From the NCBI GenBank assembly GCA_964406725.1, contig CAYOSV010000003.1, positions 9,962 through 41,961 of the forward strand: DNA of 32,000 bases. Reading direction: 5' to 3'. The notes beneath the pieces were generated by a model, which saw nothing but the letters and a program-made list of their open reading frames with translations, searched no databases and was not told where the DNA came from. The position numbers were made by a program, and so were the translations under genes. This DNA comes from an uncultured Candidatus Saccharibacteria bacterium (lineage in GTDB: Bacteria > Patescibacteriota > Saccharimonadia > Saccharimonadales > Saccharimonadaceae). Shown here piece by piece: positions 8,990-24,842 of this stretch (its first letter is position 1; each line of letters opens with the position of its first letter).

Positions 8990-9506
8990 ATAGTTCCTCT
9001 ATGGCCTCCTCTAATTTATCCGTGAGAATGTCCGCATCTGAATCTTTTTTTATCTCTAATTTGATAGATGTCGCAATCGACTTTATGTCATCCGGAAAAT
9101 CATCATTATTAAGATTAATCCCTACTCCTACTACGACATATTCTAGTGTATCGGCCTTAAAATGCGCCTCAATCAAAATACCACAGACTTTTTTATTATT
9201 AATCTTGATATCATTCGGTAAAACCACTTTGGAATTTACGCCGTATAGTTCATTTAGCTTTTTAGAAATGATAACTGGTATGTGTTCTAAAGCATCTTTC
9301 CTTAACTTTTTGTCTCCACTTTTGTTTTTCAACAGGAAACTAAGAGTAATACTTTTATTTGGTTCGGAAAACCATTTCCTATCGAACTGTCCGCGCCCAT
9401 TCGTTTGGGATTTTGCAATGATTAGAATATTTTCATGCGTTTTGTCTGCTATTTTTTCTGCATGATCATTGGTGCTATTGATGCTTTCTAGAACAATTCT
9501 TTTCAT
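8982..9506 (-). CDS. birA: Biotin--protein ligase, catalytic core only (no HTH, apparently no C-terminal domain)
   Basis: SINSTNDHA, QTNGRGQFDRKW (GRGRxGRxW-type motif), KINNKKVCGILIE. Start placed at the second Met (ATGA overlap with the fabF stop, GGAG 6 nt upstream). The ORF track start is 9518. Confidence 0.8.
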   Translation of the reverse strand: MKRIVLESINSTNDHAEKIADKTHENILIIAKSQTNGRGQFDRKWFSEPNKSITLSFLLKNKSGDKKLRKDALEHIPVIISKKLNELYGVNSKVVLPNDIKINNKKVCGILIEAHFKADTLEYVVVGVGINLNNDDFPDDIKSIATSIKLEIKKDSDADILTDKLEEAIEELYD

Positions 9507-10729
9507 TGCGCGCTCCATTTCTTAAATACCAGACAGGCATTATGGCCACCAAAACCAAATGAATTAGATAGAGCATAGTTAGCGTTGGTCAACCGCTCTT
9601 TTTCAGAGACATTCAAGACACAGTCGTCTTCTAGATCCAACTTGTAAGTACTACCGGGTATAATTCCGCTCCCCAGCATTAATATCGTAGCTATAGCCTC
9701 TACTGCACCGCTAGCGCTAAGCAAGTGCCCGATTTGCGACTTAATCGACGACACGGGTGGACATTCCTTACTCCATATCTCGCGGATGGCTTTTGCTTCA
9801 GTTTTGTCACCCAATATCGTAGATGTGCCATGCGCATTGATATACCCGATATTGTCAGGATTAATCTCGGCGCAGGCAATAGCACCCAACATAGCATCCT
9901 TGCTCGATAGGCCTTCGTAGTCTGGTGATACCATATTAAAAGCATCCGAATTATTAGCGTATCCTACAATCTCGGCATATATCTTAGCCTTTCTTTTTAG
10001 CGCGTGAGATAGCTCTTCCAAAACTAGAACACCAGCACCCTCTCCTATTAGAAAACCACTACGCTTTTTATTGAAAGGAATTGAAGCGCATTTTTTGTCT
10101 TCGCCAGTATATATAGCCCTCATTGCGGCGAAGCCGGCGAGGGTTAGTGGAGTTATAGACGCATCTGCTGCTCCAGCAACGAAAATATTATTATCTCCAT
10201 TTCTGATTTTTAGAAATGCTTCACCTATTGATATGCCACCACTTGCGCAGGCCGCTACATGACACATACTACTCCCTTTAGCACCTAAATCTATTGATAC
10301 TTTTGCTGCGGCCGTATTTGGCAAAACTGATTGTAGGAAATATGGTGAAATTCTGGCTGCGCCTTTTGTGTCTAATTGTCTAACACCGTCACTCAATATC
10401 TCTGGTCCACCAATGCTTGTAGAAATATAAACTCCGACCTTCTTAGCATCTTCTAAAGCCATATCTAGTCCGGAATCATTCCATGCTTCACGTCCGGCAA
10501 TTCTCGCAAAATTTGTAAATCTCGAATCGAATTTTGTATCTCTTTTTGGCAAGGATGATAAGTCTAAATCTTTGACAGTTGCCGCTAACTTTACGGGCGA
10601 CTCGGCGAATTCTTCCGTATCTAAGACACTAATACCATCTTCGCCAGACTTTAGGCTATCCCAGAAGTCTTTTGCATTATTGCCAATAGGAGTAATCGCA
10701 CCTAACCCAGTTACTACCACTCGTCTCAT
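9503..10729 (-). CDS. fabF: Beta-ketoacyl-ACP synthase II (elongating KS, Cys-His-His)
   Basis: RRVVVTGLGAITPIG, active-site ACASGG, HGTST, GHLLSASG, FGFGGHN. Confidence 0.9.
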   Translation of the reverse strand: MRRVVVTGLGAITPIGNNAKDFWDSLKSGEDGISVLDTEEFAESPVKLAATVKDLDLSSLPKRDTKFDSRFTNFARIAGREAWNDSGLDMALEDAKKVGVYISTSIGGPEILSDGVRQLDTKGAARISPYFLQSVLPNTAAAKVSIDLGAKGSSMCHVAACASGGISIGEAFLKIRNGDNNIFVAGAADASITPLTLAGFAAMRAIYTGEDKKCASIPFNKKRSGFLIGEGAGVLVLEELSHALKRKAKIYAEIVGYANNSDAFNMVSPDYEGLSSKDAMLGAIACAEINPDNIGYINAHGTSTILGDKTEAKAIREIWSKECPPVSSIKSQIGHLLSASGAVEAIATILMLGSGIIPGSTYKLDLEDDCVLNVSEKERLTNANYALSNSFGFGGHNACLVFKKWSAQ

Positions 10730-11514
10730 TTTATAATCCTTTCAATATCTTCTAGCGACTCAACTTTCCTTACTCTAGCTCGAACCCCCTTTTCTTTGCA
10801 TATTTGACGAATTAGATTTACCGGCGCAGTTCCAATGCCGATGCTGATAAATTCATCTACTGAGTCATCCAACATATTTTCAATAATGCTTTGGAATTGT
10901 ACCGGGCTCACTAAATGCTTCACCATCGCTCCTCTGACATCTTTGATTATTTTCTTGCCAGTTAAGTTACAATAAATCGGTATAGTAGGCGTTTTCTCGC
11001 AAAAGCTATCTAAAAATCTCCTCATCTTTTCACTGGCACTATTTAAATATGGGGAATGGAAGGCGCCAGTTACTCGCAAATCAATTGTCGATGCGTTTTT
11101 AAATTGCCGGAAAGCATCCTTAAACTCCTTTATTCTTGTCTTTTCTCCTCCGACTACGGTTTGCATAGGTGAATTATAATTTGTAACAAAAAGACCGCAC
11201 CTCGTTGCCATTTTCTCAATTTCTTTTGCCGGCATACCGAGGCACGCCACCATAGAAGTATTTGAGCCTCTTAATGCATCATCCATTATTTTTTGCCTAA
11301 ATATTAGGATTTGCTCTAGCTCTTCAACGTTAAAAACATCCGCAACAGCAAAACACGCATATTCCCCAAGGCTAAGACCTGCTATCGCATCTGGCTTAAT
11401 ATCATTTGCGATTAAAATTTTCGCTAAAGCAATGCTCATCCAAAAAGTGGCTAGCTGAGGATTATGAATTCCCAGTCCTTCTCCTTGTCCAGTAAAAATA
11501 AACGCTCGTTTCAT
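10726..11514 (-). CDS. fabD: Malonyl-CoA:ACP transacylase, shortened
   Basis: FIFTGQGEG, nucleophile elbow GLSLGEY, NSPMQTVVGG, GAFHSPYL. 262 aa compared with about 310 for typical FabD. Confidence 0.8.
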   Translation of the reverse strand: MKRAFIFTGQGEGLGIHNPQLATFWMSIALAKILIANDIKPDAIAGLSLGEYACFAVADVFNVEELEQILIFRQKIMDDALRGSNTSMVACLGMPAKEIEKMATRCGLFVTNYNSPMQTVVGGEKTRIKEFKDAFRQFKNASTIDLRVTGAFHSPYLNSASEKMRRFLDSFCEKTPTIPIYCNLTGKKIIKDVRGAMVKHLVSPVQFQSIIENMLDDSVDEFISIGIGTAPVNLIRQICKEKGVRARVRKVESLEDIERIIK

Positions 11515-13133
11515 TGCTTATCCCAGTTCCTTATTCTATTATACCGTCTATCAAGTAATTGTTTCATATCAAATTTGCTTAAACGTACTAAGGACTCTGC
11601 AAAATAGCGCTCTATTTGCAAAGTGTTATATTCCAATGTACCTTCTTTTAGAATCTCGTCAACTAATCCCTCGTTATATAAATCTTTAGCTGTAAACTTC
11701 ATGTTTGCTAATAATTCTGGCTGGACTTCGGGTTTATTAAAAATAATTGCAGAATAGGATTCAGGTGATATGACGGAGTAAGTTGCTCCACTAAACATTG
11801 CGAGTACGTCCGAAACCGATAAACCCAATGCACCACCGCTACAACCTTCTCCAGTCACTATTGATACTATTGGTGTTTTTGTTTCCAGTAAATTGAGCAT
11901 ACTTTCCGAAATGGCAATACTTTGACAATTCTTTTCTGCAACATCTCCAGGATGCGCCCCAGGACTATCGAGCAATATCAGAACGGGCAAGTGAAACCTT
12001 TCGGCTAATTTTGCTACTCTAATGGCCTTCCTAAAGCCTTCTGGTCTAGTCATTCCGTAATTATTCTCTATATTCTCTCTCAGATTTCTGCCTTTATTCT
12101 GGATGATGAAAGCTGTTTTTATGCCAGATATTTCTCCGAGTCCAGTGAGTAAACTTGGATCATCATAAGAAATTCGATCTCCTTTCAATATTATGGGGTT
12201 GTCAAAAAGTTTAAAGAGATAATCGATTCCAACTGTTTTAGAGTTGTTTCTAATATTTTGGAGAACTATTTCTGGTTTTTTATTGCCATGGTCATATTCT
12301 GGTTTTTCATTCTCAGCTTTAATTGAATTGTTCTTGTTTAGTATAGCTAAAAGCTCAATAATTGTATTCAATATATCTTTTCGCTCGCAAATCATGTCTA
12401 GCCCGCCGCTTCTCAACACATATTTTGCACTTTGAAAATCGTCAGCAACCTGTTCGTGTAATATGTCTTTCACCAGCATCTTGCCGCCGAACCCAATTGA
12501 GGAATTTGGCTCAGCGATATTTATATCACCCATTAATCCAAAAGATGCAGTAGTGCCGCCATAAGTTGGATCCGTTAAAACAGAAATAAACGGCAGGCCT
12601 TTTTTGCGAAATTTCATCAAAGTAGCGTCAATCTTCGCCATTTGTACTAAGCCCACAGCGCCCTCTTGCATACGCACTCCGCCTCCAGCGCAGAAAGCCA
12701 CAACAGGAAGATTACTCTTTGTTGCATATTCGAAGGCTTTCGCGATTTTTTCACCATTTGCCTTCGATAAAGTACCAACCATAAAATATCGTTCCATTAG
12801 TATAGTAATAAAAATTTTACCGTTTACTTTACATTTGCCGACAATGACGGATTCAGAGAGGCCGGTACGATTTTTGTCCCGTTCAAATTTTTCACTATAA
12901 TCATATGTTCTTGAATTATCTATATCGTATTCTGCTAAAAGTTGTTTGAATTTTCCACCATTCTTTCGTATAATTTCTATTCTTTTTAGAGCTGGCATCC
13001 TCTCATGATGTTTGCATTTTTTGCACACTAGAAGCTCGTCCAATTCGTCACCGCAGTTTGAACAGGCTGGCCTATTTAAGATTCTAGCGTTACGCTTCTT
13101 TATTTTTATCTTCTGCTCATCCAGGATACTCAT
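11511..13133 (-). CDS. accD: Fused acetyl-CoA carboxylase carboxyltransferase beta-alpha (AccD-AccA)
   Basis: N-terminal Zn ribbon CSNCG...CKKC and an AccD-like half (VVAFCAGGGVRMQEG). C-terminal AccA-like half (GFRKAIRVAKLAERFHLPVLILLDSPGAHPG, VTGEGCSGGALG). Confidence 0.85.
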   Translation of the reverse strand: MSILDEQKIKIKKRNARILNRPACSNCGDELDELLVCKKCKHHERMPALKRIEIIRKNGGKFKQLLAEYDIDNSRTYDYSEKFERDKNRTGLSESVIVGKCKVNGKIFITILMERYFMVGTLSKANGEKIAKAFEYATKSNLPVVAFCAGGGVRMQEGAVGLVQMAKIDATLMKFRKKGLPFISVLTDPTYGGTTASFGLMGDINIAEPNSSIGFGGKMLVKDILHEQVADDFQSAKYVLRSGGLDMICERKDILNTIIELLAILNKNNSIKAENEKPEYDHGNKKPEIVLQNIRNNSKTVGIDYLFKLFDNPIILKGDRISYDDPSLLTGLGEISGIKTAFIIQNKGRNLRENIENNYGMTRPEGFRKAIRVAKLAERFHLPVLILLDSPGAHPGDVAEKNCQSIAISESMLNLLETKTPIVSIVTGEGCSGGALGLSVSDVLAMFSGATYSVISPESYSAIIFNKPEVQPELLANMKFTAKDLYNEGLVDEILKEGTLEYNTLQIERYFAESLVRLSKFDMKQLLDRRYNRIRNWDKQ

Positions 13134-14395
13134 TACTCATTCTCTCCAAAATAGCTATAGCTACCCACTATATAATCTTCTCGGCTAATAGTCTCGTAGA
13201 GTTCATCAACGTTAGTATGAGCACCTAAAATAATTATTTCATCAAGTGCGAGTTTCATCTTTGAGATCGCCCTCCGCCTTTCCTTGTCGCTTGCTATTAT
13301 TTTTGCAATCAGCGGATCATAATATGGCTTTATTCGGTATCCTTGATAAATATATGTGTCTATTCGCACATCTTTTCCCGTAGGTAAGCTAAATATATTA
13401 AGCTCGCCATTATCCTTAGCAGATAGCCTGCATTCGATGGCGCATTTTTTAGCACTCACTTTCATAGGCAGACGATTCTTCTGACCTGAAGCTATTCTGA
13501 TCTGCTGTTCAACAAGATCTATACCCGTGACCTCTTCTGTTACAGTATGTTCGACTTGTAATCTAGAATTTATTTCAAGAAAATAATAGTTCATCTGTTT
13601 ATCCACCAAAAATTCAATCGTCCCGACACTATCAAATCCAACCTCTTTTATAAGTTTGACGGCGTCTTGTTCCATTTTTTCCAACAGCTCTTTTGGTATA
13701 TTAGACACTGGGGTTTCTTCAATGACCTTCTGATAATGCGATTGCACGGAGCAGTCTCTGGCCGGTAGAATAGAAATTTTGCCGAATTTGTCCGCAACAA
13801 ACTGTATATCTATATGCTTATATAAATCTATTATTTGCTCCAGGAAGAAACTGTCTCCGCTAAACCCAGTGCTCAAATTTAGTTTGGCGGATTTGAGACA
13901 ATAGTCGAAATCCTCTTTGTTTTTTACTGTTTTTATGCCTTTTCCACCACCGCCATAGCTTGATTTAATCATTAGCGGATATTCATCTTTATCGACTGAT
14001 GGGATAACTGGAATTCCTAATTTTCTTGCCATTTCTTTCATCCGGAATTTATTTGCAGTTTTTTCTAAAATGTTGCTTGATGGCCCAATAAATATAATTC
14101 CACTTTCATGGGCTCGTTTTGCAAACTCATCATTTTCGCTTAAAAAGCCATACCCTGGATGCAAAGAATCACATCCCGTATTTTTTGCCGCCTCTAGAAT
14201 TGCTGGAATGTTAAGATACGAGTCTGATGGGCTGCTATCACCAATACAAATCGCCTCATCGGCCAAGAATACCGCCATAGTATCTTTATCGCATTTTGAG
14301 TATGCCACAACCGTTCTAATACCCAAAATACGGCAGGTCTGTATTATTCTTACTGCTATTTCTCCTCTATTTGCAATTAGTACTTTTTGAATCAT
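13133..14395 (-). CDS. accC: Biotin carboxylase
   Basis: KVLIANRGEIAVRII, HPGYGFLSEN, SYGGGGKGI, RDCSVQSHYQKVIEE, EINSRLQVEHTVTE. Confidence 0.92.
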   Translation of the reverse strand: MIQKVLIANRGEIAVRIIQTCRILGIRTVVAYSKCDKDTMAVFLADEAICIGDSSPSDSYLNIPAILEAAKNTGCDSLHPGYGFLSENDEFAKRAHESGIIFIGPSSNILEKTANKFRMKEMARKLGIPVIPSVDKDEYPLMIKSSYGGGGKGIKTVKNKEDFDYCLKSAKLNLSTGFSGDSFFLEQIIDLYKHIDIQFVADKFGKISILPARDCSVQSHYQKVIEETPVSNIPKELLEKMEQDAVKLIKEVGFDSVGTIEFLVDKQMNYYFLEINSRLQVEHTVTEEVTGIDLVEQQIRIASGQKNRLPMKVSAKKCAIECRLSAKDNGELNIFSLPTGKDVRIDTYIYQGYRIKPYYDPLIAKIIASDKERRRAISKMKLALDEIIILGAHTNVDELYETISREDYIVGSYSYFGENE

Positions 14396-14757
14396 ATATA
14401 ATCAACCTCAAAAAGCTTAGAGCCAAATTCTACACTCTCTCCGTTCTTAAAATACGTTTTTCTAATAATCAAATCAGCCGGTGCACAAATTTTATTCATT
14501 ATTTTCATGCTTTCAATGATACATAAAGACTGACCTTCTTTAACTCTTTCGTTTATTTGTATGGTTGGGGATACATCATAATAAGTGCCTACCAGCGGCG
14601 ACAAAATATGTTTATCTGGATAGTCAGTCTTTTCTTGATCCGTTTTAGGACCATTCTTCTTTATAGAAACTCTAAAATCGGCATCCTCGTACTCAAATTC
14701 GGTTGCTTCAGAATTATCGAAATCAGCTAAAATCTTCTTTAGTTTATCAATTGGCAC
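14392..14757 (-). CDS. accB: Biotin carboxyl carrier protein, short form
   Basis: Biotinyl-lysine motif CIIESMKIMNKI in a C-terminal lipoyl/biotinyl fold. 121 aa. Confidence 0.8.
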   Translation of the reverse strand: MPIDKLKKILADFDNSEATEFEYEDADFRVSIKKNGPKTDQEKTDYPDKHILSPLVGTYYDVSPTIQINERVKEGQSLCIIESMKIMNKICAPADLIIRKTYFKNGESVEFGSKLFEVDYI

Positions 14758-14983
14758 TTTCTATACCTTTCTCCGCTAGTAAATCCAAACAATTCTTTAC
14801 GGTCTTTAGTTTAGCGAGTTCGCTTTGCTCTACTTTTATATTGTATTTTTCTTCAAGCGAGAGCACTAATTGCGTAGTCGCCAAGCTATCGATCATCAAA
14901 TCGTCTCTTAGGCTAGTTTCTAATGTAATATCATCGTCTATGCCCAATTCCTCATCTAGAAACTTTTTAAATTCTTTCAACAT
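14747..14983 (-). CDS. Acyl carrier protein (cluster-specific)
   Basis: 78 aa, acidic, with the phosphopantetheine site LMIDSLATTQLV (DSL). Confidence 0.85.
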   Translation of the reverse strand: MLKEFKKFLDEELGIDDDITLETSLRDDLMIDSLATTQLVLSLEEKYNIKVEQSELAKLKTVKNCLDLLAEKGIESAN

Positions 14984-14984
14984 T

Positions 14985-15917
14985 TTATATCTCCATTAAT
15001 AATATATTAGATGTTAACCCTGCCGCAGTCCCACATAGCATTACTTTGTCACTAGTATGGATTTTTCCTTCTTCTAGCATTTTGCATAACATAAATGGAA
15101 CCGAAACGGACACTTGATTACCAAAGCTATCAACGCGATTGACATATTTTTCTTCTGGTATTCCCAATTTTTTCATAATCAAGGGTAATGCCTTACTCGC
15201 CTGATGTGGGATTACTAAGTCTACATCGTTCAATGATAGATTAGCCTCTTTTTTAAAATCATCAAACATTTTTGGTAATTTTCGCGTGCATGCACGTAAT
15301 ATATCGAGCCCCTCCATTTTAAAGTAATATTTGTCTCGGTTTTTATTGTTCATTTTAGTGGCATTAAGTCCAGTTAATCCACCTATAATTTCTGTCGCGT
15401 GCGCGCTTTCTGACCAAGTGCACTGTTTAGAGGCTATTACACCTTGTTTCGTATCATTAGTATGAGAAAGTACAATTGCCGCGGCTCCGTCAGAGAATAG
15501 TTCATAGATTTCTTTTTTATCCTTCGGAAGCCCAGGGCTAGCCAGCTCGCTTGATACAATTAAAATATTTCTATATGTTCCAGCTGCAATTAGATACGAT
15601 GCAATGTCCAGTGCGGTTATAAAGCTAGTACAAGTGGTATTAATATCCATGGCAGGAATATTGCAGTCGTTCATTATTTGTTCATGAATTAAGCTTGCTG
15701 TACAGGGGATTGGTTGGATACCTACTGCTGAAGCGGCTATTATCAAATCAATATTTTCTGGTTTTAGCCTAGCATTTTTCATCGCCTTTTTAGCGGCATC
15801 TGTCGCCATAAAAAGTTGATTTTCCTTACCTGAAGCTCTGTATCTAATTTGACTACCAAATGTCACTATGTTTTTTGGTAAATAATATCCATAGCCCGAT
15901 ATTTTACAATTTCTCAT
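14985..15917 (-). CDS. KAS III (FabH)-like condensing enzyme
   Basis: ISGYGYYLP at the N-terminus. Cys in NTTCTSF, His in IPHQAS, Asn in FGNQVSVS (Cys-His-Asn triad). 310 aa. Confidence 0.85.
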   Translation of the reverse strand: MRNCKISGYGYYLPKNIVTFGSQIRYRASGKENQLFMATDAAKKAMKNARLKPENIDLIIAASAVGIQPIPCTASLIHEQIMNDCNIPAMDINTTCTSFITALDIASYLIAAGTYRNILIVSSELASPGLPKDKKEIYELFSDGAAAIVLSHTNDTKQGVIASKQCTWSESAHATEIIGGLTGLNATKMNNKNRDKYYFKMEGLDILRACTRKLPKMFDDFKKEANLSLNDVDLVIPHQASKALPLIMKKLGIPEEKYVNRVDSFGNQVSVSVPFMLCKMLEEGKIHTSDKVMLCGTAAGLTSNILLMEI

Positions 15918-17191
15918 TTTTTTATCCTTTCCACTCGCTTCATCTTTTTACTAAAATCAGATTCATATTTCTTAAAAGTAGTGGCTGGCATTTTGAAACG
16001 CATTCTCTTAGCGAGAGTTTTTAACTCTTCTTTGATTAGTCTTTGATTTTCAATGTCTATATTATCTAGATAAAAAATGACTTTTTTAGATGATTCTTGT
16101 ACTACTCTATAATTCTTTATTTTGGGCACGTAGAGTACCACTCTGGAAATAAAATCAGGGAATACTTTTATCGTTCTATCATTTACGCCATCAAATTCAA
16201 AAACATCATCCATCCTTCCTTCTATCTTCTTAAGCCTCGTCATGGATGTCCCGCATTTACATGGCCTTCTGTCTTCAACCAAAATATCGTTTAATCGATA
16301 TTTGACAATAGGTTGAGTCGTCCTAACAAAGTCTGTGATAACCGGAGTAAATCTTGTGTCGTCAAGATACTCCTTTTCAACCGCTATAACATCCTCGTTG
16401 AGATGTAGGGAGCCATGCTCGCAAGTGTATCCAAGGAATCCTTCGGTGCATTGATATACTTGGTATATTATCTTTTGCTTGAAAACCCTTTTCAAATATT
16501 GTTCGTCTTTTTCTGTTAATACTTCTGCAACTGATATAATCCTTACCGGATTAATGCTCAGCTTCTTGGCTTTGGTAGCCTCCGCCAGTATGAGCAGTAC
16601 AGATGGCGGTGCGATCAAAATTGTCGGCTGAAACTCCTGTAATTTTATTATATTTTGTTCCATTGGCTTTAAGATGTCAAAAAACTCAAATTTAAGCATC
16701 TTACTGTTTGATGACTCATATAAGTTATTGTCAGCCCGAAGGAAAAACGCAACTTTGGTCCCAAAGATCTTACCTTTCGGTAGCATTTTTGCCATCATGC
16801 CGCCCACCCACGTTGCGATCTCAATGTCGCTAAGGACAAACACCCCACGGTGTCCGCTTGTCCCAGATGACAACCCAACAGAATAGCCATTCAGCTTTTC
16901 CGAAAAATCACGGCTTTTTTCGCTATTAATAGCTAGCTTAAGGGCATCGTCCTTTGATATTCCAGCTGTATTTATTCTGTCAAAATTATCCATCATGACT
17001 TTTTTATTCATATACGGCAACTCTTCAAAAGTTTTGCCACTAAACTTTTGAAAATACGGGGAATGGTGTTCTAGAAAAACTAGTTGTTTTTTTATCTGTT
17101 TTTGCTGATATTTTTCCAGCCTCTTTCGACTTTTAAATTTGTGAAAATAGCGAGCACGAATAAATGTTTTAAGAATTAAGCCTTTATTCAT
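15914..17191 (-). CDS. F390-synthetase-related / PaaK-like adenylate-forming enzyme
   Basis: N-terminal KRLEKYQQKQIKKQL helix. P-loop-like GLSSGTSGHRGVF. Size and layout are as in the F390 synthetase/phenylacetate-CoA ligase clade. Confidence 0.7.
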   Translation of the reverse strand: MNKGLILKTFIRARYFHKFKSRKRLEKYQQKQIKKQLVFLEHHSPYFQKFSGKTFEELPYMNKKVMMDNFDRINTAGISKDDALKLAINSEKSRDFSEKLNGYSVGLSSGTSGHRGVFVLSDIEIATWVGGMMAKMLPKGKIFGTKVAFFLRADNNLYESSNSKMLKFEFFDILKPMEQNIIKLQEFQPTILIAPPSVLLILAEATKAKKLSINPVRIISVAEVLTEKDEQYLKRVFKQKIIYQVYQCTEGFLGYTCEHGSLHLNEDVIAVEKEYLDDTRFTPVITDFVRTTQPIVKYRLNDILVEDRRPCKCGTSMTRLKKIEGRMDDVFEFDGVNDRTIKVFPDFISRVVLYVPKIKNYRVVQESSKKVIFYLDNIDIENQRLIKEELKTLAKRMRFKMPATTFKKYESDFSKKMKRVERIKK

Positions 17192-17982
17192 AGCAGCTCC
17201 TTTTTATTGTTTGCATCATGGCTAAATACCAGATTAACACCTTTTTTCTTTAATAACTTTAAGTTATCTAGGGTATTACGGTATTCTCTCATATTGTCCT
17301 GTATTAATGATGCAGGAAACTTCATATGGTATGATAGATCAATTAAATCATTCCCCCAACATGAGTCTGCTGCTAACAAAATCTTATTATCTATTAGCGC
17401 ACCCAATTGACCGCTAGCGTGACCACCTAGCTTTAATAAAATTAAACTGCCGTCATTAAACAAGTCGTAACCTTTTAGCGCACCAAAAACTTCAGTTACC
17501 ATCATTTTGTCTGAAATTACGTTAGCCCTATCTTCAAAATCGGCAGGAAAGAAATGTTGCATTATTAAATCTCGTATCCTTCTATTTTTGTATGTATTTA
17601 TAGTTTCTTTTGAGACAATAAAATTCGCCTTGCCAAAACTCCTAAGTCCACCAATATGGTCTGGGTGCAAATGCGACAGTATAATTATCTTAATATCCTC
17701 CGGCCGAGTCCCGATCTTACTAAGTTGAAACTTTAGCTCGTCATTTTCTTCTACTGATGTGGGATTAAAGAAATTATAAGCTCTACCAACAAAACCAGTT
17801 TTACAAATATCGACAGAATAACCTGTATCAAAAAGAATCAGCCCATGTTTAGCGTGCTCAATCAAAAATGCTCCGGCTGGGAATTTTCTTTTTTCGCCAC
17901 GCATACCCCTAAAAACTCGACCGAGGTTATTTGTACAATATCCACAACTAAAATACTTAACACTTTTGATGGCTGGTTGCAT
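17188..17982 (-). CDS. MBL-fold metallo-hydrolase (lactonase-like)
   Basis: HxHxDH motif ILSHLHPDHIGG, plus later GGHASG and SHD metal ligands. N-terminal SCGYC segment. Overlaps the SDR stop by 26 nt. Confidence 0.8.
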   Translation of the reverse strand: MQPAIKSVKYFSCGYCTNNLGRVFRGMRGEKRKFPAGAFLIEHAKHGLILFDTGYSVDICKTGFVGRAYNFFNPTSVEENDELKFQLSKIGTRPEDIKIIILSHLHPDHIGGLRSFGKANFIVSKETINTYKNRRIRDLIMQHFFPADFEDRANVISDKMMVTEVFGALKGYDLFNDGSLILLKLGGHASGQLGALIDNKILLAADSCWGNDLIDLSYHMKFPASLIQDNMREYRNTLDNLKLLKKKGVNLVFSHDANNKKELL

Positions 17983-18955
17983 ATTTCTCGATTCCTTCGC
18001 TTAATGTCATCTTTGGTTTATATCCCAAATCTCGCTTCGCTTTGTCAATATTTAAAGTCTGGCTATAGCCCAAAGTGCAGATAGTGTATTTAGTAATTGG
18101 TGGCTCTTTATAAATATGAAAAACCTTATAAATTGATTCTATGGCGGTTGCGGCCGAGATGGCGAATCTTAAGTTAATATTCTTGTATCTTGGTGTTTCG
18201 CCAAGTTGCTTAAATAATTCCTCCAGCAATCCTTTGAATTCTTGCGGCTCATCATTGGTGATATTATAAATCTTATGTGATGACTTTTTACTTTCTGCTG
18301 CGAGCCTCACTGCGTATGCGACATTTTCGACGCACGTCATATCTACATAGTTCTTTCCGCCCCCAAACAAAGGCAATCCTATTTTCTTGTTAGCATGTAT
18401 TAGTCTAGGAACGATACTCGTATCGCCTACCCCAAATAATCCTCGTGGGCGAAGTATTGTCCAATTAATGTCATCATATTTCTCGATAGCTTTCTCGGCT
18501 AGAATTTTACTTTCAATATAGTAGTTCAATTTGTTGTCTCTATCATAATCATCTTCGTCTATATCTAATTTATCGGATCTGCCAGCATAAATACTGGGGG
18601 ATGATATATACACGAGTTTATTAATCTTGTTTTTACGGCAGGCTTCCAAGATGTTTTTAGTACCATCGACATTGGTTTTTAAAAAATCGGATCGTTTACC
18701 CCACACAGTTGAAAGTGCACCGAGATGAGCGACAATATTAATATTTTTCGTAGCCTTTAAGCAATCTGACGAACTACATAAATCTCCGTAAGCCAATTCG
18801 ATTTCCGGATATTGCTGCTTTAAAGCTGACATTTTTTGCTTATTTCTGCCAAAAGCAACGACAGTATATCCGTTATCCAAAAATTCGGCAATAACATACT
18901 TACCTAAAAATCCATAAGCGCCAGTAACTAATACTCTACGTGAGATCCTTTTCAT
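17957..18955 (-). CDS. NAD(P)-dependent epimerase/dehydratase / 3-beta-HSD-type SDR
   Basis: Rossmann VLVTGAYGFLGKYV and catalytic YIESKILAEK (YxxxK). Start moved to MKRISRR (GGAG 6 nt upstream). The ORF-track start at 19000 lies inside a leader hairpin. Confidence 0.8.
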   Translation of the reverse strand: MKRISRRVLVTGAYGFLGKYVIAEFLDNGYTVVAFGRNKQKMSALKQQYPEIELAYGDLCSSSDCLKATKNINIVAHLGALSTVWGKRSDFLKTNVDGTKNILEACRKNKINKLVYISSPSIYAGRSDKLDIDEDDYDRDNKLNYYIESKILAEKAIEKYDDINWTILRPRGLFGVGDTSIVPRLIHANKKIGLPLFGGGKNYVDMTCVENVAYAVRLAAESKKSSHKIYNITNDEPQEFKGLLEELFKQLGETPRYKNINLRFAISAATAIESIYKVFHIYKEPPITKYTICTLGYSQTLNIDKAKRDLGYKPKMTLSEGIEKYATSHQKC

Positions 18956-19128
18956 GATTTTCTCCATACTATCCCCATAACCAAGTGGAACACTCGCCAT
19001 GGAGTGTTCTAGACTTCATTTTTCACAGTAAGCTATCGAGCCAACTGGAGCGAGTGCTCCACGCAGGGTTCGATATTTCACACTACCTTGTTAGGGGTAG
19101 ACTTACCATGAAATTGAAATCTAGAACT
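18956..19128 (-). promoter_or_regulatory. Structured ~170-nt 5' leader of the biosynthetic operon (candidate riboswitch/attenuator, class unknown)
   Basis: Nested helices on the minus-strand RNA, in plus coordinates: 19120-19127 with 19006-19013; 19098-19106 with 19028-19035; 19067-19073 with 19036-19042; hairpin 19047-19060. An alternative hairpin at 18988-19009 excludes the outer helix. Confidence 0.4.
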
Positions 19129-19134
19129 ATCTTT

Positions 19135-19143
19135 ATTATATCA
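19135..19143 (-). promoter_or_regulatory. Extended -10 promoter (TGATATAAT on minus strand) for the 15-gene operon
   Basis: Reverse complement of attatatca is tgatataat. It lies in the only gap (19001-19164) of the cluster. Confidence 0.6.
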
Positions 19144-19164
19144 TACCCACCGCCAAAATTGCGG

Positions 19165-20313
19165 CTATATGTCTAATACTTTTTTATATAATCTTTCGAC
19201 TTTTATACCAAACTCTTCTTTGCTAAAATTATTGGATTTTTTCAAGGAATTTTTATGCATATCATCCATCAACATCTTATTGTTTAATATAGACTCAACA
19301 CCTTCTATAAAATCATCTTCATTTTCAAAAACAAATCCGTTGCTACCTTTTTCTATTATCCTATCTAGACATTTATCTTTTTTGCAGACCATGGGCATCC
19401 CAGATGCTAATGCCTCTACATATGTTAGCCCTTGCGTCTCACTCGTTGATGCTGATACGAAAATATTCCCCAATTGATAATATTTGTATATTTCATCTCG
19501 CAAAATCGCACCGGTAAAAATCACATGGTCACTCATATCCAATTTATTTATTTCCTTAACTAATTTTGTTTTATATGGTCCATCTCCCACTATGATTAGT
19601 TTTATGTCTTTGTCTCTTTTTGTTAATGCTGGCAAGTACCTAAGTAACTCATCTATATTCTTTTCTGCTGCCAATCTGCATACTGTTACTAAATATTTAT
19701 TAGAATTTTGCAAACCTAATTCGGATAAAATTTTCGTTTTTTCTTTTTTGGGCAATCTTTTCTTATAGATATTCATATCTATACCGGAAGGAATGATTTC
19801 TATCGGGCATTTTATACCATATTTTTCCATTACAGCTTTTACCTTTTCCGACGGGACAATTAGCGTCGCCGAAGTGTTATAGATTTTATTGCTCATAATT
19901 TTCACAATTTTCTTGCCAAGTTTCTTGTTTGGGCAAAAATATTCAGTATAATCTTCGTATAATGTATGGCATGTTGCCACAAATGGAATATTGAGGGTTT
20001 TTATTATTTTATTTGCAAGAATTTTAGTGGTAAATTCTGATTGAGCATGGACAATATCGGGTTTCCAATCTATGATTTTTTGTATCAACTTATCATGTGT
20101 TTTTAAACTAAACCTTGCCCCCGGATAAACCGGAATCGGCTTAGACGCAATATAATAATTATTATCCTTAAAATATGATTTACCGTTTGGAGATAAAACA
20201 AGCATCCGGACATCATGCCCCAGTTTTCTTAGCTCATCTTTTAATGCAGCGTTTGAATTATGAGCCCCGCTTATTTGGTATTCACACACGTCAGATGAAA
20301 ATAATATTTTCAT
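19165..20313 (-). CDS. GT4-family glycosyltransferase (resembles glycosyl-diacylglycerol/glycolipid synthases)
   Basis: N-terminal MKILFSSDV...ISGAHNSNAALKDELRKLGHDV pattern, as in MGS/CpoA-type GT4 enzymes. E-x7-E motif in STSETQGLTYVEALASG. Confidence 0.75.
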   Translation of the reverse strand: MKILFSSDVCEYQISGAHNSNAALKDELRKLGHDVRMLVLSPNGKSYFKDNNYYIASKPIPVYPGARFSLKTHDKLIQKIIDWKPDIVHAQSEFTTKILANKIIKTLNIPFVATCHTLYEDYTEYFCPNKKLGKKIVKIMSNKIYNTSATLIVPSEKVKAVMEKYGIKCPIEIIPSGIDMNIYKKRLPKKEKTKILSELGLQNSNKYLVTVCRLAAEKNIDELLRYLPALTKRDKDIKLIIVGDGPYKTKLVKEINKLDMSDHVIFTGAILRDEIYKYYQLGNIFVSASTSETQGLTYVEALASGMPMVCKKDKCLDRIIEKGSNGFVFENEDDFIEGVESILNNKMLMDDMHKNSLKKSNNFSKEEFGIKVERLYKKVLDI

Positions 20314-20343
20314 ATTAAGTTTATTCTTTGTTATCTCTTACGT

Positions 20344-20352
20344 ATTATATCA
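20344..20352 (-). promoter_or_regulatory. Extended -10 promoter (TGATATAAT on minus strand) for the GT4 gene
   Basis: Reverse complement of attatatca. It lies about 30 nt upstream of the ATG at 20313. Confidence 0.55.
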
Positions 20353-20376
20353 TAATCCAGCTTCTTAGAATTTATT

Positions 20377-20418
20377 ATGTAACGAAAACTACCCAATTTT
20401 CGTTACATAGAGTATAAT
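20377..20418 (+). promoter_or_regulatory. abiE promoter with 12-bp perfect inverted repeat (candidate AbiEi operator)
   Basis: atgtaacgaaaa (20377-20388) / ttttcgttacat (20397-20408), 8-nt spacer, directly followed by tataat (20413-20418), SD aaggag (20425-20430) and the ATG at 20437. Confidence 0.6.
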
Positions 20419-20436
20419 GGATTTAAGGAGAAAAAT

Positions 20437-21036
20437 ATGAGCAATCACGAATTAGCTGAAAAAAGAATTATAGATATGCCAGACGGTAGTGTTTTCACGA
20501 CCTCTGATTTTGCTGATATAACAGCAGATAATAATCTTCGCCAAATCTTTTCTCGTCTCGAAGGCGAAGGTAAGATTCGTCGAATTTTACCAGGCATTTA
20601 CGATAAACCGGCCTTTTCTGAAATCCTACAGGAAAATTCAGCGCCAGACATTAATGCTGTTGCTGAGACAATCGCACGCAAGAATAACTGGACTATCGCT
20701 CCAGACGGCAATACGGCCTTAAACTTACTCGGCCTTTCAACGCAAGTTCCAGCAAAGTGGGAATATCTTAGCAGTGGCGACTCGAAAAGCTATCAAATCG
20801 ATAATCGTTCCATCAACTTTATCCACCGTGCAGATCGAGAACTAAATGGTATGTCGAGAAAAACAATGCTTATCATACAGGCTATTAAGGCTTTGGGGCC
20901 TGAGCATGCCTCGAAAGATATTATTGAGCAGTTAGCTGGAAAAACTTCGGTTGCGGAAAAAGAGAAACTACTAGCCGAAGCAAAGCCTACTACAAATTGG
21001 ATTTACGAAGTAATAAAGAAGATTTGCGAGGTTTAA
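20437..21036 (+). CDS. abiEi: AbiEi-family type IV antitoxin / transcriptional regulator
   Basis: N-terminal FTTSDFADI...LRQIFSRLEGEGKIRRILPGIYDKP winged-helix pattern typical of AbiEi. Its stop is 1 nt before the partner gene start. Confidence 0.75.
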   Translation: MSNHELAEKRIIDMPDGSVFTTSDFADITADNNLRQIFSRLEGEGKIRRILPGIYDKPAFSEILQENSAPDINAVAETIARKNNWTIAPDGNTALNLLGLSTQVPAKWEYLSSGDSKSYQIDNRSINFIHRADRELNGMSRKTMLIIQAIKALGPEHASKDIIEQLAGKTSVAEKEKLLAEAKPTTNWIYEVIKKICEV

Positions 21037-21037
21037 G

Positions 21038-22027
21038 ATGTATGATCTAGTAAATCTCCCGAAGGATGAATTATTAATAATCATTGGGAAAGTTTCTGAA
21101 GCTAAAAATTTAAGTCCTGCCATTATCGAAAAAGACCTCTTCGTTTGTGCTATCCTCGACTATCTTTTTACTAAAAGCCCGTGGAAAGATAATCTTGCTT
21201 TTAAAGGCGGCACGAGTTTATCTAAGGCTTTTAATCTCATCGAGCGTTTTTCCGAAGATATTGATTTAATTTTGGATTGGCGCGTAATCGGTTATGAAAC
21301 AAAAGAACCACTAGAGAACCGCTCGAATACAAAACAGGATGCGCTAAATAAGGAATTCGATGTAAAGACTGAGAAATTTTTAAGATCCACATTCATTCCT
21401 AAACTCAAGGAAGATCTTACAAATCTTATAAATCGCGGCATCAATATCGGCTACGAGGATGATGCGGTTATCGTCAGGTATGGGAATGATTATGCAGATG
21501 AGTCTATTCTGCACGTAATTCGGCTCGAAATAGGCGCCAAAGCAGCTTGGACGCCCACTAAGGTCTCCACTATCCGACCGTATATCGCCGAGGTCTATCC
21601 AGCGCAGTTCAGTGATGCTTCTGTTTCGGTCCGCACCACTACACCAGAACGCACTTTCTGGGAGAAGGCAACAATCTTGCATCACGAAGCTAACCGCCCA
21701 GATGATTTGCCTGTCCCTCCGAGAATATCGCGTCATTATTACGACATTTATCGCATGGCGAAACTTGGCGTGCTCGATAAGGCTCTAGCTCAATCTGATC
21801 TGCTAAAGCAAGTTGCTGATTTTAAAGCTAAGTTTTATCCGCGAAAATGGGCAGAGTATGACTCAGCCAGAATCGGTTCGCTCAAACTTATTCCGTCTAA
21901 TATTCACAAGGAAGCTTTAAAGCGTGATTATTCAAAGATGGCAGGCATGATTTATGGTGAACGTCCAGATTTTGATGATTTGATAACTGAACTTGCTGAA
22001 ATTGAAGCCAAAATTAACGGTAAATAA
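21038..22027 (+). CDS. abiEii: AbiEii/AbiGii-family nucleotidyltransferase toxin
   Basis: Hallmark FKGGTSLSKAFNLIERFSEDIDL NTase motif, and later FWEKATILH. 329 aa. Confidence 0.85.
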   Translation: MYDLVNLPKDELLIIIGKVSEAKNLSPAIIEKDLFVCAILDYLFTKSPWKDNLAFKGGTSLSKAFNLIERFSEDIDLILDWRVIGYETKEPLENRSNTKQDALNKEFDVKTEKFLRSTFIPKLKEDLTNLINRGINIGYEDDAVIVRYGNDYADESILHVIRLEIGAKAAWTPTKVSTIRPYIAEVYPAQFSDASVSVRTTTPERTFWEKATILHHEANRPDDLPVPPRISRHYYDIYRMAKLGVLDKALAQSDLLKQVADFKAKFYPRKWAEYDSARIGSLKLIPSNIHKEALKRDYSKMAGMIYGERPDFDDLITELAEIEAKINGK

Positions 22028-22148
22028 TAACATATCTCACCATTTCTCGTCAAGAAAAATTTCTACCCCTGTTTTATGCACGAAACAGACCGAAACACCG
22101 TTTGTGATCAAGTGGATACCCTCCATTGACTTATTGTAGTTTTATTTT

Positions 22149-22589
22149 CTAAAAATCGTTACCATAGCTCGGCGTAATATCGATTGGTTCCGCCCACAAA
22201 AAGCGCTTCTCAACCGACCAACGCCGGACAAAATACATGCGCAAAATCGCCTCGTTTACGTCGCGGTTATTTAGGGCACGTGGGATATAGGCGAGAGAGA
22301 AATAATATTTATCCTCGTCTTCGCGGTCTAAGTGAATATAAATGCGTTTTCCGTAGCCATAACGCATTTCTTTATCCCAAGTTCCAAGCAAAGTCTCGTC
22401 ATCAAACTCCCTAAGCGCCCATTTAGCATCACGAACGCTCGAATCGACGAGCACCATTTCTTTTAAGTCATTATATTGACGCGAGGTGAGTATACCTTCG
22501 TGTTTTTCGTATAATTCGGTTAGTTGCCTTGCGGTGACTTCTATCGGTCCGCCATTCTTTGGCTTCTTGTAGATACGGCTTTTTACCAT
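22149..22589 (-). CDS. Hypothetical protein (no family recognised)
   Basis: 146-aa ORF with plausible upstream signals (tataat near 22641-22646, purine-rich stretch before the ATG). No motif I can place. Confidence 0.5.
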   Translation of the reverse strand: MVKSRIYKKPKNGGPIEVTARQLTELYEKHEGILTSRQYNDLKEMVLVDSSVRDAKWALREFDDETLLGTWDKEMRYGYGKRIYIHLDREDEDKYYFSLAYIPRALNNRDVNEAILRMYFVRRWSVEKRFLWAEPIDITPSYGNDF

Positions 22590-22764
22590 ATTGCCCTTTT
22601 CTCTTAGGGATGCGCTTAAAGCGGTATTATTCCCATTATAACATTGACAATGGAAGCTCTAAAGAGAGCTTTTACGATGACAATGATGGTGTTAGGTTGT
22701 CCTACTTAGCATTATTCACTTATTTTTGTATTACTGGTTCGTAAATGCATTGGCTGTCATAGCC

Positions 22765-22983
22765 CTAATATATAAAATCTCGTTCATTGACAATTATATT
22801 GCTTTCAACTAGAATATAGGTAGGGCGGTAGTCCGAATGCGAAATTATGTAATCAATTGCGTTACAGAGTGGTTCGTAAAGATTTGGATTACGCGCACCA
22901 CATTTATTGCTAAAATCGCCTATCTTGGCGTTTTTTCTTGTTCGCTCGTCCATTAGACGCGCTTCACAAGAAGAAAACACCAA
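22765..22983 (-). CDS. Small hypothetical ORF, possibly a gene fragment
   Basis: 72 codons from a TTG start with no RBS seen. It overlaps the open frame of module A by 27 nt. Confidence 0.25.
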   Translation of the reverse strand: MVFSSCEARLMDERTRKNAKIGDFSNKCGARNPNLYEPLCNAIDYIISHSDYRPTYILVESNIIVNERDFIY

Positions 22984-23077
22984 TCTAGACGATTTTATCT
23001 AACAAACGTTACGATACCAACTTGCCAGCTTCTATTCTCGATTTTTCATGTTTGCTTCATAATAAATAATACTTCCC

Positions 23078-23103
23078 ACGCCATCACCAGTGCTGGAACG
23101 ATA
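23078..23103 (+). repeat. 26-nt box, left copy (5' boundary of module A)
   Basis: acgccatcaccagtgctggaacgata. The reverse complement recurs at 24763-24788 with one mismatch. Confidence 0.8.
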
Positions 23104-23397
23104 GTAAACAAAAGCAGTTCTGACGATACCGGAAATACAAATACAGCAACAGAAAGTATATGCCCAAAAGGGTGGACCTTGCCAAGCAAAAAGCAGGTAG
23201 ATAATAATAGAGACACCGCTAATTTTAGCCCGGTATTGGGTGGAGATTATCACAACGCTATTCATGATCGTGGAGCTATACGCGGAGGTTGGTGGGGGAG
23301 TGAAGTCTTTAATGGTGCGGTACGGGACGACCTGGTTTATAATGGTAGTAGTATGAATACCGGTGGTGGTGCTCGTCAATACGGCTTCTACATCCGC

Positions 23398-23463
23398 TGC
23401 GTTAGTGAAGAAAAGACTGTAACAGACTTAACTTATCTTCAGGATATGACGGGTGAGATTGCA
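23398..23463 (+). repeat. 66-nt inverted repeat, left copy (3' boundary of module A)
   Basis: tgcgttagtgaagaaaagactgtaacag...gggtgagattgca matches the reverse complement of 24403-24468 at 65/66 (mismatch at 23421). Identity ends abruptly on both sides. Confidence 0.9.
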
Positions 23464-23780
23464 GCCCGTTTTTATTTTTTCACAAAAAAATGTTATAATA
23501 ATTTTTGAAGAAGGGTAGTTTATACCAAATTAATGTAAAATTCATTTTTCTAGATAAGGAAGAATATGCTGCAATTTGCCAAGCTAGAGTTATGAGCACT
23601 TCTAGACTATATTCTAAAATCGGGCAAATCCCCAAAATAGATTTAGAAAAAGTCAAAAATGGTTTTGTAAAATTATATAAATAAAAATATGCCCCAATCT
23701 TACAATTGGGGGACGCGGGTATTCCCGAATAACTTCATTATACCAAAAATTGTAGTTTTGTAAAGCCCCATGCACCACCC

Positions 23781-23813
23781 TTTATCCCCCAGTAGCTGTA
23801 GAAGCTATAGACT
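23781..23813 (+). repeat. 33-nt perfect inverted repeat, left copy
   Basis: tttatcccccagtagctgtagaagctatagact is identical to the reverse complement of 24810-24842. It contains an internal dyad tagct-gtaga-agcta. Confidence 0.9.
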
Positions 23814-24402
23814 GGAATAAGCTTATGGAGCCTGGACACAGCGGATGTAGAAGCCATTAGGGCGGCGGTTGCCGCCGGCATATAAGTCACCACCATCATA
23901 ACTCAAGAAGTAACGACTTACACCATTAGACACACTAGAGCCCCACCAACCGCTTATATTTTCATCATTCAAATTGCTATTGTAATAACTTCCACCCGGA
24001 ACTGGGGAAAAGATTGAAATATAAGTAGTGCTACCACTGCTTGATCCTATGCTGCTTATTTGTGTCTTATTTGGCAAAGTCCATCCTTTTGGACAGATGC
24101 TTTCGGTGGCTTTTGCCGTATTAGTAGCAGGATTGCCGGATGTTGTATTTTTATCAACGATAGTACCAGCAGAAGCCAAGGTGTAATTGTACCAATTGGT
24201 AGGTAGGTCTCCGCTTATTGCGATAGTGCCACTGTGGATACAATTATTTCCATATCCAGGTCCCCAACCTTTTTGGCTAGTACCGTTCCATGTTCCATAG
24301 CATTCTTTCCCGCTAGGGCCGTAGGTAACGAGGTCGTAGGTGGTAAGTTCGCGATAGCCGTCGGGTTATGAGACTGGCGGTGGTTCCATCTAGCGTATTG
24401 TT

Positions 24403-24468
24403 TGCAATCTCACCCGTCATATCCTGAAGATAAGTTAAGTCTGTCACAGTCTTTTCTTCACTAACGCA
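24403..24468 (-). repeat. 66-nt inverted repeat, right copy (3' boundary of module B)
   Basis: Reverse complement equals 23398-23463 except at one position (24445). Confidence 0.9.
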
Positions 24469-24762
24469 CCGGACATAGACTCCAAGGCGGCGGGCATCGC
24501 TGCTGGTATATAGGCTACTACCATTGTAACCCAGGCGGTACCGTCTAGTACCATTATAGGCCTCACTCCCCCACCAGTACCCGTTCGTAGCCTCATTGTA
24601 CAGCGTACCATTGACGTAACCCCCGCCCAGAACTAGACTAAAATTAGTAACATCTATATTATTGTCTATTTGTTTGGTGGTCGGTAAGGTCCAGCCTTTT
24701 GGACATACGCTTTCTGTTGCAGTATTTAGATTTCCGCTATCATCAGCATCGCTCTTATTTAT

Positions 24763-24788
24763 TATCGTTCCAGCACTGGCGATGGCGT
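24763..24788 (-). repeat. 26-nt box, right copy (5' boundary of module B)
   Basis: Reverse complement acgccatcgccagtgctggaacgata matches 23078-23103 at 25/26. Confidence 0.8.
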
Positions 24789-24809
24789 AGTTGTATTGTT
24801 AGCTCTGTT

Positions 24810-24842
24810 AGTCTATAGCTTCTACAGCTACTGGGGGATAAA
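24810..24842 (-). repeat. 33-nt perfect inverted repeat, right copy
   Basis: Reverse complement is identical to 23781-23813. Confidence 0.9.

Follow-up and report, generated by a model that had tools for sequence, protein, structure and literature searches.

Layout of the locus

The window analysed here is the 32,000-nt stretch of contig CAYOSV010000003.1 (assembly GCA_964406725.1, an uncultured Candidatus Saccharibacteria bacterium), and all coordinates refer to it. Between positions 22957 and 24842 it holds three domain copies, modules A, B and C, which are 5'-truncated FISUMP/DUF1566 (lectin-fold) domains and belong to a large family in rumen and jejunal Saccharibacteria. We describe the locus and its family, in which a diversity-generating retroelement (DGR) and homologous recombination appear to have produced the variation among copies. 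A first-pass annotation of the window had described the modules as FISUMP/DUF1566-like and opposed, and both points are confirmed by domain matches and alignment.

Module A (plus strand, 23078-23463) and module B (minus strand, 24403-24788) are opposed 386-nt copies that align without a gap. Their identity is 75% overall (290/386) and 68% in the core (200/294), in agreement with the two-thirds estimated in the first pass, and reaches 25/26 in a 26-nt box at the 5' end and 65/66 in a 66-nt box at the 3' end. Synonymous sites differ between A and B at a proportion (pS) of 0.60-0.64 across the core but only 0.07 across the 3' box, so the box is conserved as DNA, beyond what constraint on the protein would impose. 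The chance of such a sharp drop is about 1e-4 by our own binomial estimate, a figure with no tool behind it.

Upstream of A, on the plus strand, a promoter-like site (22787-22815, TTGACA-17-TAGAAT, 11/12) precedes an ATG-started 40-codon leader (22837-22956) that is in frame with A and ends in TAG. The frame of A is open from 22957, and its earliest ATG, GTG or TTG comes only at 23179. Between 22957 and 23077 this start-less frame encodes a basic and then a hydrophobic stretch (RRKHQSRR...CQLLFSIFHVCFII), a candidate signal or anchor. The 5' box of A (23078-23103) encodes AITSAGTI and coincides with a family boundary, B1. It is followed by a part outside the DGR template repeat (23104-23219, NKSSSDD...CPKGWTLP...; A vs B pS 0.60 and proportion of differing non-synonymous sites, pN, 0.17), by a variable-repeat-like region (23220-23397, FSPVLGG...YIRC) that aligns without gaps to the template repeat TR83, and by the 66-nt 3' box (23398-23463, VSEEKTVTDLTYLQDMTGEIA). 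The 66-nt box is the beginning of the next FISUMP domain, truncated at A; in the full units P0001, P0002 and P0004 it opens a constant region of about 400 nt that is 99% identical between units.

The right half of the locus lies on the minus strand. Behind an in-frame TAA, the frame of B opens four codons ahead of its 5' box (24763-24788) and runs through the core (24469-24762, with a variable-repeat-like region at about 24463-24634 by alignment to TR83) and the 66-nt box (24403-24468) into a linker and the 5' part of C (24090-24402). Module C covers about 23826-24179 and terminates ...YIRCVQAP-stop at 23826; its portion at 23826-24089 (CPKGWTLP...YIRCVQAP), with a variable-repeat-like part at 23830-24012, is 100% identical in the alleles L008 and L009. 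B, linker and C form a single reading frame that is disrupted by 28 additional nt at 24363-24390. The 5' ends of A, B and C contain no ATG, GTG or TTG, so none of the three is a complete target open reading frame (ORF) such as a DGR has.

B and C are bracketed by a perfect 33-nt inverted repeat (23781-23813 / 24810-24842) that the first pass had overlooked. The repeat is the tail, about 45 nt long, that follows every QAP-type cassette of the window lineage. The left arm belongs to the tail past the stop of C (23781-23825, minus strand); the right arm is an orphan tail (24810-24842, plus strand), inverted relative to that of C and 20 nt upstream of B. In the relatives L051 and L021 the tail sits ahead of the 5' box in direct orientation.

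The spacer between A and C (23464-23780) holds a terminator-like hairpin 3' of C (23711-23692, minus strand) and a 59-aa ORF (23505-23684, plus strand) whose weak resemblance to the C-terminal end of PemK_toxin stays below the cut-off (E 0.005) and which is probably a fragment of a PemK/MazF-like gene. On direct reading the 26-nt box is partly palindromic. A hairpin or terminator role of the boxes finds no sign in the fold z-score of the 66-nt box (-1.1, not significant), the Rfam scan of the window returned one tRNA and nothing else, and the structure prediction for C was unusable (mean pLDDT 49).

The absence of start codons, claimed in the first pass, holds for the allele in the window. In another allele, P0416 (223 aa, on a 3.8-kb contig), the substitution T22954C turns the TAG into CAG and A is read in frame from the ATG at 22837, 3' of the promoter-like site; the leader then has one basic and two hydrophobic stretches. 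Judged against P0416, A lies one nonsense codon from having a start.

Independent assemblies share the arrangement

A match of 100% identity to a rumen metagenome scaffold, taken with the source names of the homologues, assigns the window to a rumen Candidatus Saccharibacteria genome. The full arrangement is equally 100% identical in contigs from different samples (L001/L011 and L002/L015), and L017 and L020 match overlapping parts of it at 100%. Since the same arrangement is found in contigs from different samples, it is no assembly artefact, and a chimera of collapsed paralogues, which the first pass had named as a possible undoing of its proposal, is ruled out. Many short-read contigs terminate inside the locus. 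Independent ones stop in the variable-repeat-like region of C at 23920, 23949, 24035 and 24089, probably at assembly breaks induced by the repeats.

A family of start-less FISUMP cassettes

The modules score 17-28 bits, below the FISUMP cut-offs of 33.9 and 41.65 (TIGR02145 / PF09603), while the full-length homologue P0164 scores 54.7 bits and passes; this indicates that the modules are partial domains of the FISUMP family. A search with the repaired B-linker-C protein found 165 homologues, many per metagenome-assembled genome (MAG) and all of 382 aa or less. Nearly all have junk N-termini, in which an adjacent cassette or gene has been translated antisense or out of frame, and the junk meets the cassette at one of two sharp 5' boundaries, either before YAIASAGTI (the 26-nt box) or before (TTYDLV)TYGxSGKEC. 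At the 3' side the cassettes end either with the 66-nt box or with QAP-stop and the conserved tail of about 45 nt. For annotation this means that dozens of 170-380-aa 'hypothetical proteins' in these MAGs are mis-called cassette fragments.

When one genome per species was scanned, JAFWKW01 proved to carry at least 17 loci and CAZFVK01 at least 12, with contigs often ending there, and in both genomes all stop-to-stop ORFs bearing the domain are short. Frames are nevertheless kept open. Among 72 unique domain copies about 2 are disrupted away from recurrent boundaries or from contig or locus ends and about 70 are intact, whereas in a neutral simulation the upstream parts stayed free of stops in 59% of cases at 5% divergence and in 15% at 20%. 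Outside the template, the family shows pS 0.65, pN 0.24 and a ratio of non-synonymous to synonymous rates (dN/dS) of about 0.2. The upstream 116 nt of A and B give pS 0.60 and dN/dS 0.15, as expected from ordinary old divergence under purifying selection.

In many strains cassettes meet head to head or tail to tail, again and again at fixed boundaries. The locus beside tsaB/clpP differs by strain (L021 9968-11230 vs L022 4600-6540): one strain carries a full unit and the other three cassettes of mixed orientation with a head-to-head junction, and the far flank differs as well, marking a synteny break. In L098 (6001-6576) a cassette is fused to the 3' end of polA, and the called ORF begins in another frame of polA.

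A diversity-generating retroelement in relatives

Full-length relatives of the cassettes came from an exhaustive HMMER search. One of them, P0164 (732 aa), combines a membrane anchor and a stalk with a single FISUMP domain, which is 64% identical to the cassettes, and lies in CAZFVK01, itself rich in cassettes. Directly 3' of the gene come an ORF of 309 aa and a reverse transcriptase of 385 aa, together with the last 221 nt of the gene repeated as an inverted copy. Gene and copy mismatch at 20 of 61 template adenines and at none of the 160 other sites; the copy carries AAC or AAT at the variable codons. The gene-side copy, in L083, is followed by an 11-bp GC hairpin (z -3.2). On these alignments the inverted copy is a DGR template repeat and the system a textbook DGR. 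FISUMP/DUF1566 is a recognised class of DGR target, 'CLec2' (PMC5758913).

The same layout is repeated in L085, L088, L089, L090 and L091, and L061 has a canonical pair of template and variable repeats with 0/166 non-A mismatches. Template repeats lie just 3' of the reverse transcriptase, on the strand opposite to it and to the target, at L083 11983-12203, L085 8914-9133, L089 3512-3730, L090 2453-2681 and L091 7158-7397. The DGR accessory protein in Saccharibacteria loci is an ORF of 297-317 aa that matches nothing in Pfam or NCBIfam.

The cassettes carry the mark of this template. For 14 cassettes of CAZFVK01 and JAFWKW01, third codon positions upstream of the template boundary differ from P0164 at 52.5%. 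Inside the homologous part, compared with the template repeat of P0164, non-A third positions differ at only 7.4% and template adenines at 38.7%. A break from 52.5% to 7.4% at the template boundary marks a templated region and cannot be explained by constraint at the protein level. From this pattern, the variable regions of the cassettes have been written by the retroelement directly or converted from a diversified copy. At non-A sites, cassettes of CAZFVK01 and JAFWKW01 lie within 2-7% of the template. The footprint extends to 'internal' modules, in which homology ends at ...RCV and the SEEK box follows.

The retroelement footprint in the window

The best available reference for the modules of the window is TR83, the template repeat of the P0164 system and so from a different genome. 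Relative to it, 14 of the 17 AAY codons are altered at positions 1-2 in A and 13 of 17 in B, and the pyrimidine at position 3 is retained in 16/17 and 17/17 respectively. Codons other than AAY are altered at 18/44 in A and 8/44 in B. Both modules thus show the AAY-to-NNY rewriting of a DGR variable repeat.

At the nucleotide level, B mismatches TR83 at 23 of 54 template-A sites (43%) vs 14 of 118 non-A sites (12%). The corresponding figures are 47% vs 26% for C and 46% vs 30% for A. Genuine pairs of template and variable repeats show 0-1% mismatch at non-A sites, and the roughly 30% in A suggests that its footprint is old. By these comparisons about 60% of what looked like a 'diverged core' in A and B is DGR footprint and the rest ordinary divergence. 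Plain drift between paralogues fits the upstream 116 nt and not much of the remainder, a point that the first pass had missed.

The sixth template (TR91) serves a target of the non-cognate L085 type, as judged by protein sequence only. We also looked for a cognate template through the reverse transcriptases P0285, P0286, P0290, P0291 and P0293; each is accompanied by a template and variable repeat of its own, with no match to cassettes of the window type.

Recombination at the boxes

Five independent modules of type 1 (A and B of the window, L021, L022 and L051) hardly vary in their 26-nt and 69-nt boxes, even at synonymous sites, and have at most one difference per copy in the 26-nt box. Identity in the cores is about 70%, and no relation is seen among the five upstream flanks. 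The proposal that the boxes are kept at the DNA level is borne out by this comparison.

Strain comparison, which had been suggested as a check, brought to light a second allele of the locus (L003-L010). Over B and the 66-nt box it matches the window exactly, as it does again from the TESICPKGW box through C, and the 28-nt insert that shifts the frame is absent from it. The sole difference is the tract 24402-24090 (about 300 nt), where the two are only about 75% identical. Within this tract, window positions 24229-24326 match the cassette at the polA end (P0039, L098) at 96/98, and that cassette co-occurs with the L003-L010 allele in the same MAG and samples. We read 24402-24090 as a segmental gene conversion between dispersed cassettes with its ends in conserved boxes. 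The conversion is recent and occurred between strains with identical flanks. Recombination at the boxes, which the first pass had deduced from the box identity, is thus seen as a tract swapped between the window and the L008/L003 alleles; mosaic transfer is found for exchange among silent copies only. The frameshifted B-C junction occurs in at least four further cassettes (P0128, P0133, P0136 and P0139), which indicates that it has been copied around and is no sequencing error.

Searches for an expressed copy and a recombinase

Two word-indexed searches and one exhaustive HMMER search for an expression copy returned 165, 45 and 2634 matches. The protein collections comprised 5.8 billion clusters at 90% identity and 1.84 billion representatives at 50%. 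The full-length P0164 and P0151 do not share the boxes as DNA. P0151, a genuine relative of full length (959 aa) with two domains, has boxes only about 72% identical and no reverse transcriptase nearby. The only match with a signal peptide, P0082, lies on a 1017-nt contig and joins a cassette, from GDLPTAWYNY on, to an N-terminus that looks from its sequence like that of a Methanobrevibacter-type adhesin; it is most likely an assembly chimera. Neither among all these matches nor in the GTDB species-representative genomes did an expression copy with both boxes turn up; short-read assemblies break at these repeats and leave its absence unproven. JGI metagenome scans with the core of the 66-nt box and with a protein profile gave no match.

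Pfam scans of the large ORFs found no tyrosine or serine recombinase in the window, and for the roughly 40 related loci supplied with called genes the Pfam lists show none either. At the level of assemblies, every contig spanning the junctions has one orientation.

Genomic surroundings

The cassettes abut a block (12149-22900) that holds a fatty-acid synthesis cluster, a glycosyltransferase, an AbiEii/DUF6088 pair and a 146-aa ORF. Its identity stays at 98-100% both in a lineage with only 67-74% identity in the other flank (L012) and in lineages with an entirely different one (L013, L014, L016 and L019). By this pattern it looks like a recently exchanged island with its edge at about 22897-22903. 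In strains whose right flank differs, a further 5'-truncated FISUMP ORF adjoins the island edge (L013 8841-9710, minus strand); it is called as 260 aa from an MQNW motif and runs in the same direction as A.

Two further features of the window lie outside the cassette locus. Positions 9503-15917 encode a full fatty-acid synthesis set (acetyl-CoA carboxylase subunits, KAS II/III, malonyl transferase and ACP), which is unusual for a Saccharibacteria genome. A 474-aa ORF (1267-2691, minus strand) matches C-terminal sorting domains of type IX secretion at borderline scores (Por_Secre_tail, 28.4 bits vs a cut-off of 27), unexpected in this phylum.

Interpretation and alternative explanations

We consider it rather probable that the locus consists of retained silent cassettes of a DGR-diversified FISUMP family, shuffled by homologous gene conversion. 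Each module would then have three layers. A short upstream part would diverge slowly as ordinary coding sequence. A variable-repeat region of about 185 nt would owe its hypervariable codons to AAY-to-NNY rewriting by the retroelement. Constant junctions, namely the 26-nt 5' box, the 66-nt start of the next domain and the tail past the stop, would be held nearly identical among dispersed copies by homologous recombination, and would double as crossover points for segmental conversion between cassettes.

Several observations weigh against this reading. Concerning the retroelement, the window contains no template repeat, its large ORFs gave no RVT_1 match in Pfam scans that would reveal a reverse transcriptase, and no GC hairpin follows its variable-repeat-like regions (z -0.04 for the tail of C, -1.1 for the 66-nt box). 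None of the six template repeats examined is cognate to cassettes of the window type, as judged by non-A mismatch of 11-36% or, for TR91, by the protein sequence of its target. A and C differ from the lineage consensus at 25-26% of non-A sites, and B and C show no difference among about 10 assemblies, hence no sign of ongoing hypermutation. In the window lineage the retroelement may no longer refresh the cassettes, or may use a template that escaped our searches. Concerning a donor role, no full-length gene with both boxes and a real N-terminus was found in any collection searched. The upstream parts of the CAZFVK01 cassettes are 23-46% diverged from P0164, and no recent transfer into this expressed gene is therefore visible. 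Finally, the reading frame between B and C is broken and the break propagated, which a donor role tolerates and simple decay predicts equally.

Of the two models put forward in the first pass, that of silent donor cassettes thus keeps its anatomy, which is found family-wide, and lacks the full-length paralogue with both boxes that it had called for. That the cassettes are kept as a donor archive for full-length genes is inferred and the weakest step of our reading. A two-tier system for a lectin-type surface adhesin, in which the DGR writes both an expressed gene and the silent archive and gene conversion at the boxes shuffles variants, also into full-length genes, is a doubtful extension of it. 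Were it to hold, the genome of an ultra-small episymbiont would join hypermutation to a stored repertoire of variants resembling pilS/msp2.

One alternative explanation, which we think unlikely, is that the copies are debris: dead fragments of DGR targets, left at an island edge by illegitimate and homologous recombination among paralogues, with box identity and mosaicism as by-products of repeat-driven recombination and no role. The missing start codons, the propagated frameshift and the truncated domains all fit such debris, as do the position of the locus at the island boundary near 22900, the toxin fragment in the spacer, the drift of window-type variable-repeat regions by 9-31% at non-A sites and the failure to find an expression site in the collections searched. 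The P0416 allele adds to this that A may be a gene recently killed by a nonsense mutation. Decaying fragments should nevertheless lose their frames, and about 70 of the 72 unique copies keep them open, well above the 59% and 15% of the simulation at 5% and 20% divergence. Nor does debris account for a dN/dS of 0.15-0.2 outside the template, a check proposed in the first pass, or for sharp 5' and 3' boundaries repeated at many unrelated loci. Saccharibacteria genomes are expected to be about 1 Mb, and dozens of copies is a high number for genomes so small.

It is conceivable that A, B and C are instead active targets of a remote DGR, diversified now in trans and translated from unconventional starts. 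Cassettes of CAZFVK01 and JAFWKW01 do lie close to a template at non-A sites, GC hairpins occur in only 34% of DGRs (PMC5758913), and DGR targets in the candidate phyla radiation (CPR) are often small and without recognisable signals (PMC8144416). We regard this as very improbable for the window itself, where B and C are invariant across samples, non-A mismatch is 12-30% against every template tested and the modules have no start codons.

Site-specific inversion of the shufflon, Hin/Gin or vsa type, by which a recombinase acting on the 26-, 33- or 66-nt inverted repeats would fuse alternative modules to a fixed 5' end (the first-pass annotation had proposed the 66-nt boxes), is invited by the nested perfect or near-perfect inverted repeats, the partly palindromic 26-nt box and the head-to-head and tail-to-tail junctions at fixed boundaries in many strains, and is the least credible explanation, given that no recombinase was found in the window or in the related loci with called genes, the single orientation of all junction-spanning assemblies, an allele difference that is a replacement tract and no flip, and the fact that neither product would gain a start codon.

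Saccharibacteria live attached to host bacteria and rely on surface recognition. If they keep under selection a large reservoir of lectin modules written by a DGR, this would matter for how host range is switched or broadened, on why DGRs are so common in CPR genomes, and on the fragmentation of metagenome assemblies and the synteny breaks at these loci.

Relation to known systems

Programmed surface variation in bacteria has two classic routes, DGRs and silent-cassette gene conversion. In the literature searched we met no report of both acting on one gene family, nor of the combination described here, start-less dispersed cassettes that are written by a DGR, stay in frame and exchange tracts at boxes. 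Each ingredient is known; it is their combination that was not found in that literature.

The window family shares with DGRs that have CLec2 targets, such as Legionella LdtA, the class of variable-region domain, an AAY-rich template with rewriting to NNY codons and a variable region at the 3' end of the lectin domain. The relatives of the cassettes further resemble multi-target DGRs, as in Treponema denticola, where one reverse transcriptase and one template serve several copies. A complete system with hairpin exists in relatives, whereas reverse transcriptase, template and hairpin are all missing from the window. Unlike DGR targets, the copies here are 5'-truncated, start-less, in both orientations and spread over at least a dozen loci per genome; a 2017/2018 survey counted no more than 8 target genes in tandem for a single DGR and, for Treponema, 7 non-adjacent targets, and CPR DGRs were mostly single-target (PMC5758913). 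Many of our copies, moreover, are internal domains followed by a constant box and not by an IMH and hairpin. The IMH, the DGR homing site, normally lies 3' of the variable repeat.

The R64 shufflon (Rci/sfx) and the Mycoplasma pulmonis vsa locus (HvsR/vrs) have in common with the window opposed, 5'-truncated segments and short conserved sequences at the fusion points. They differ in that for the window family no recombinase was found and no alternative orientation seen, no constant 5' gene part lies adjacent and the copies are scattered over the chromosome instead of clustered.

Silent-cassette systems include pilE/pilS of Neisseria, vlsE/vls of Borrelia, the msp2/p44 'functional pseudogenes' of Anaplasma and the MgPa repeats of Mycoplasma genitalium. 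As in these systems, the family consists of multiple start-less partial copies, with a variable core between short blocks identical as DNA, segmental mosaic replacement with crossovers in the conserved blocks, and frames that stay open despite the absent starts. It departs from them in that no expression site sharing the blocks was found and exchange is shown among silent copies only. It also differs in the source of its variation, as part of the core diversity here would come from reverse-transcriptase hypermutation and not from stored alleles alone.

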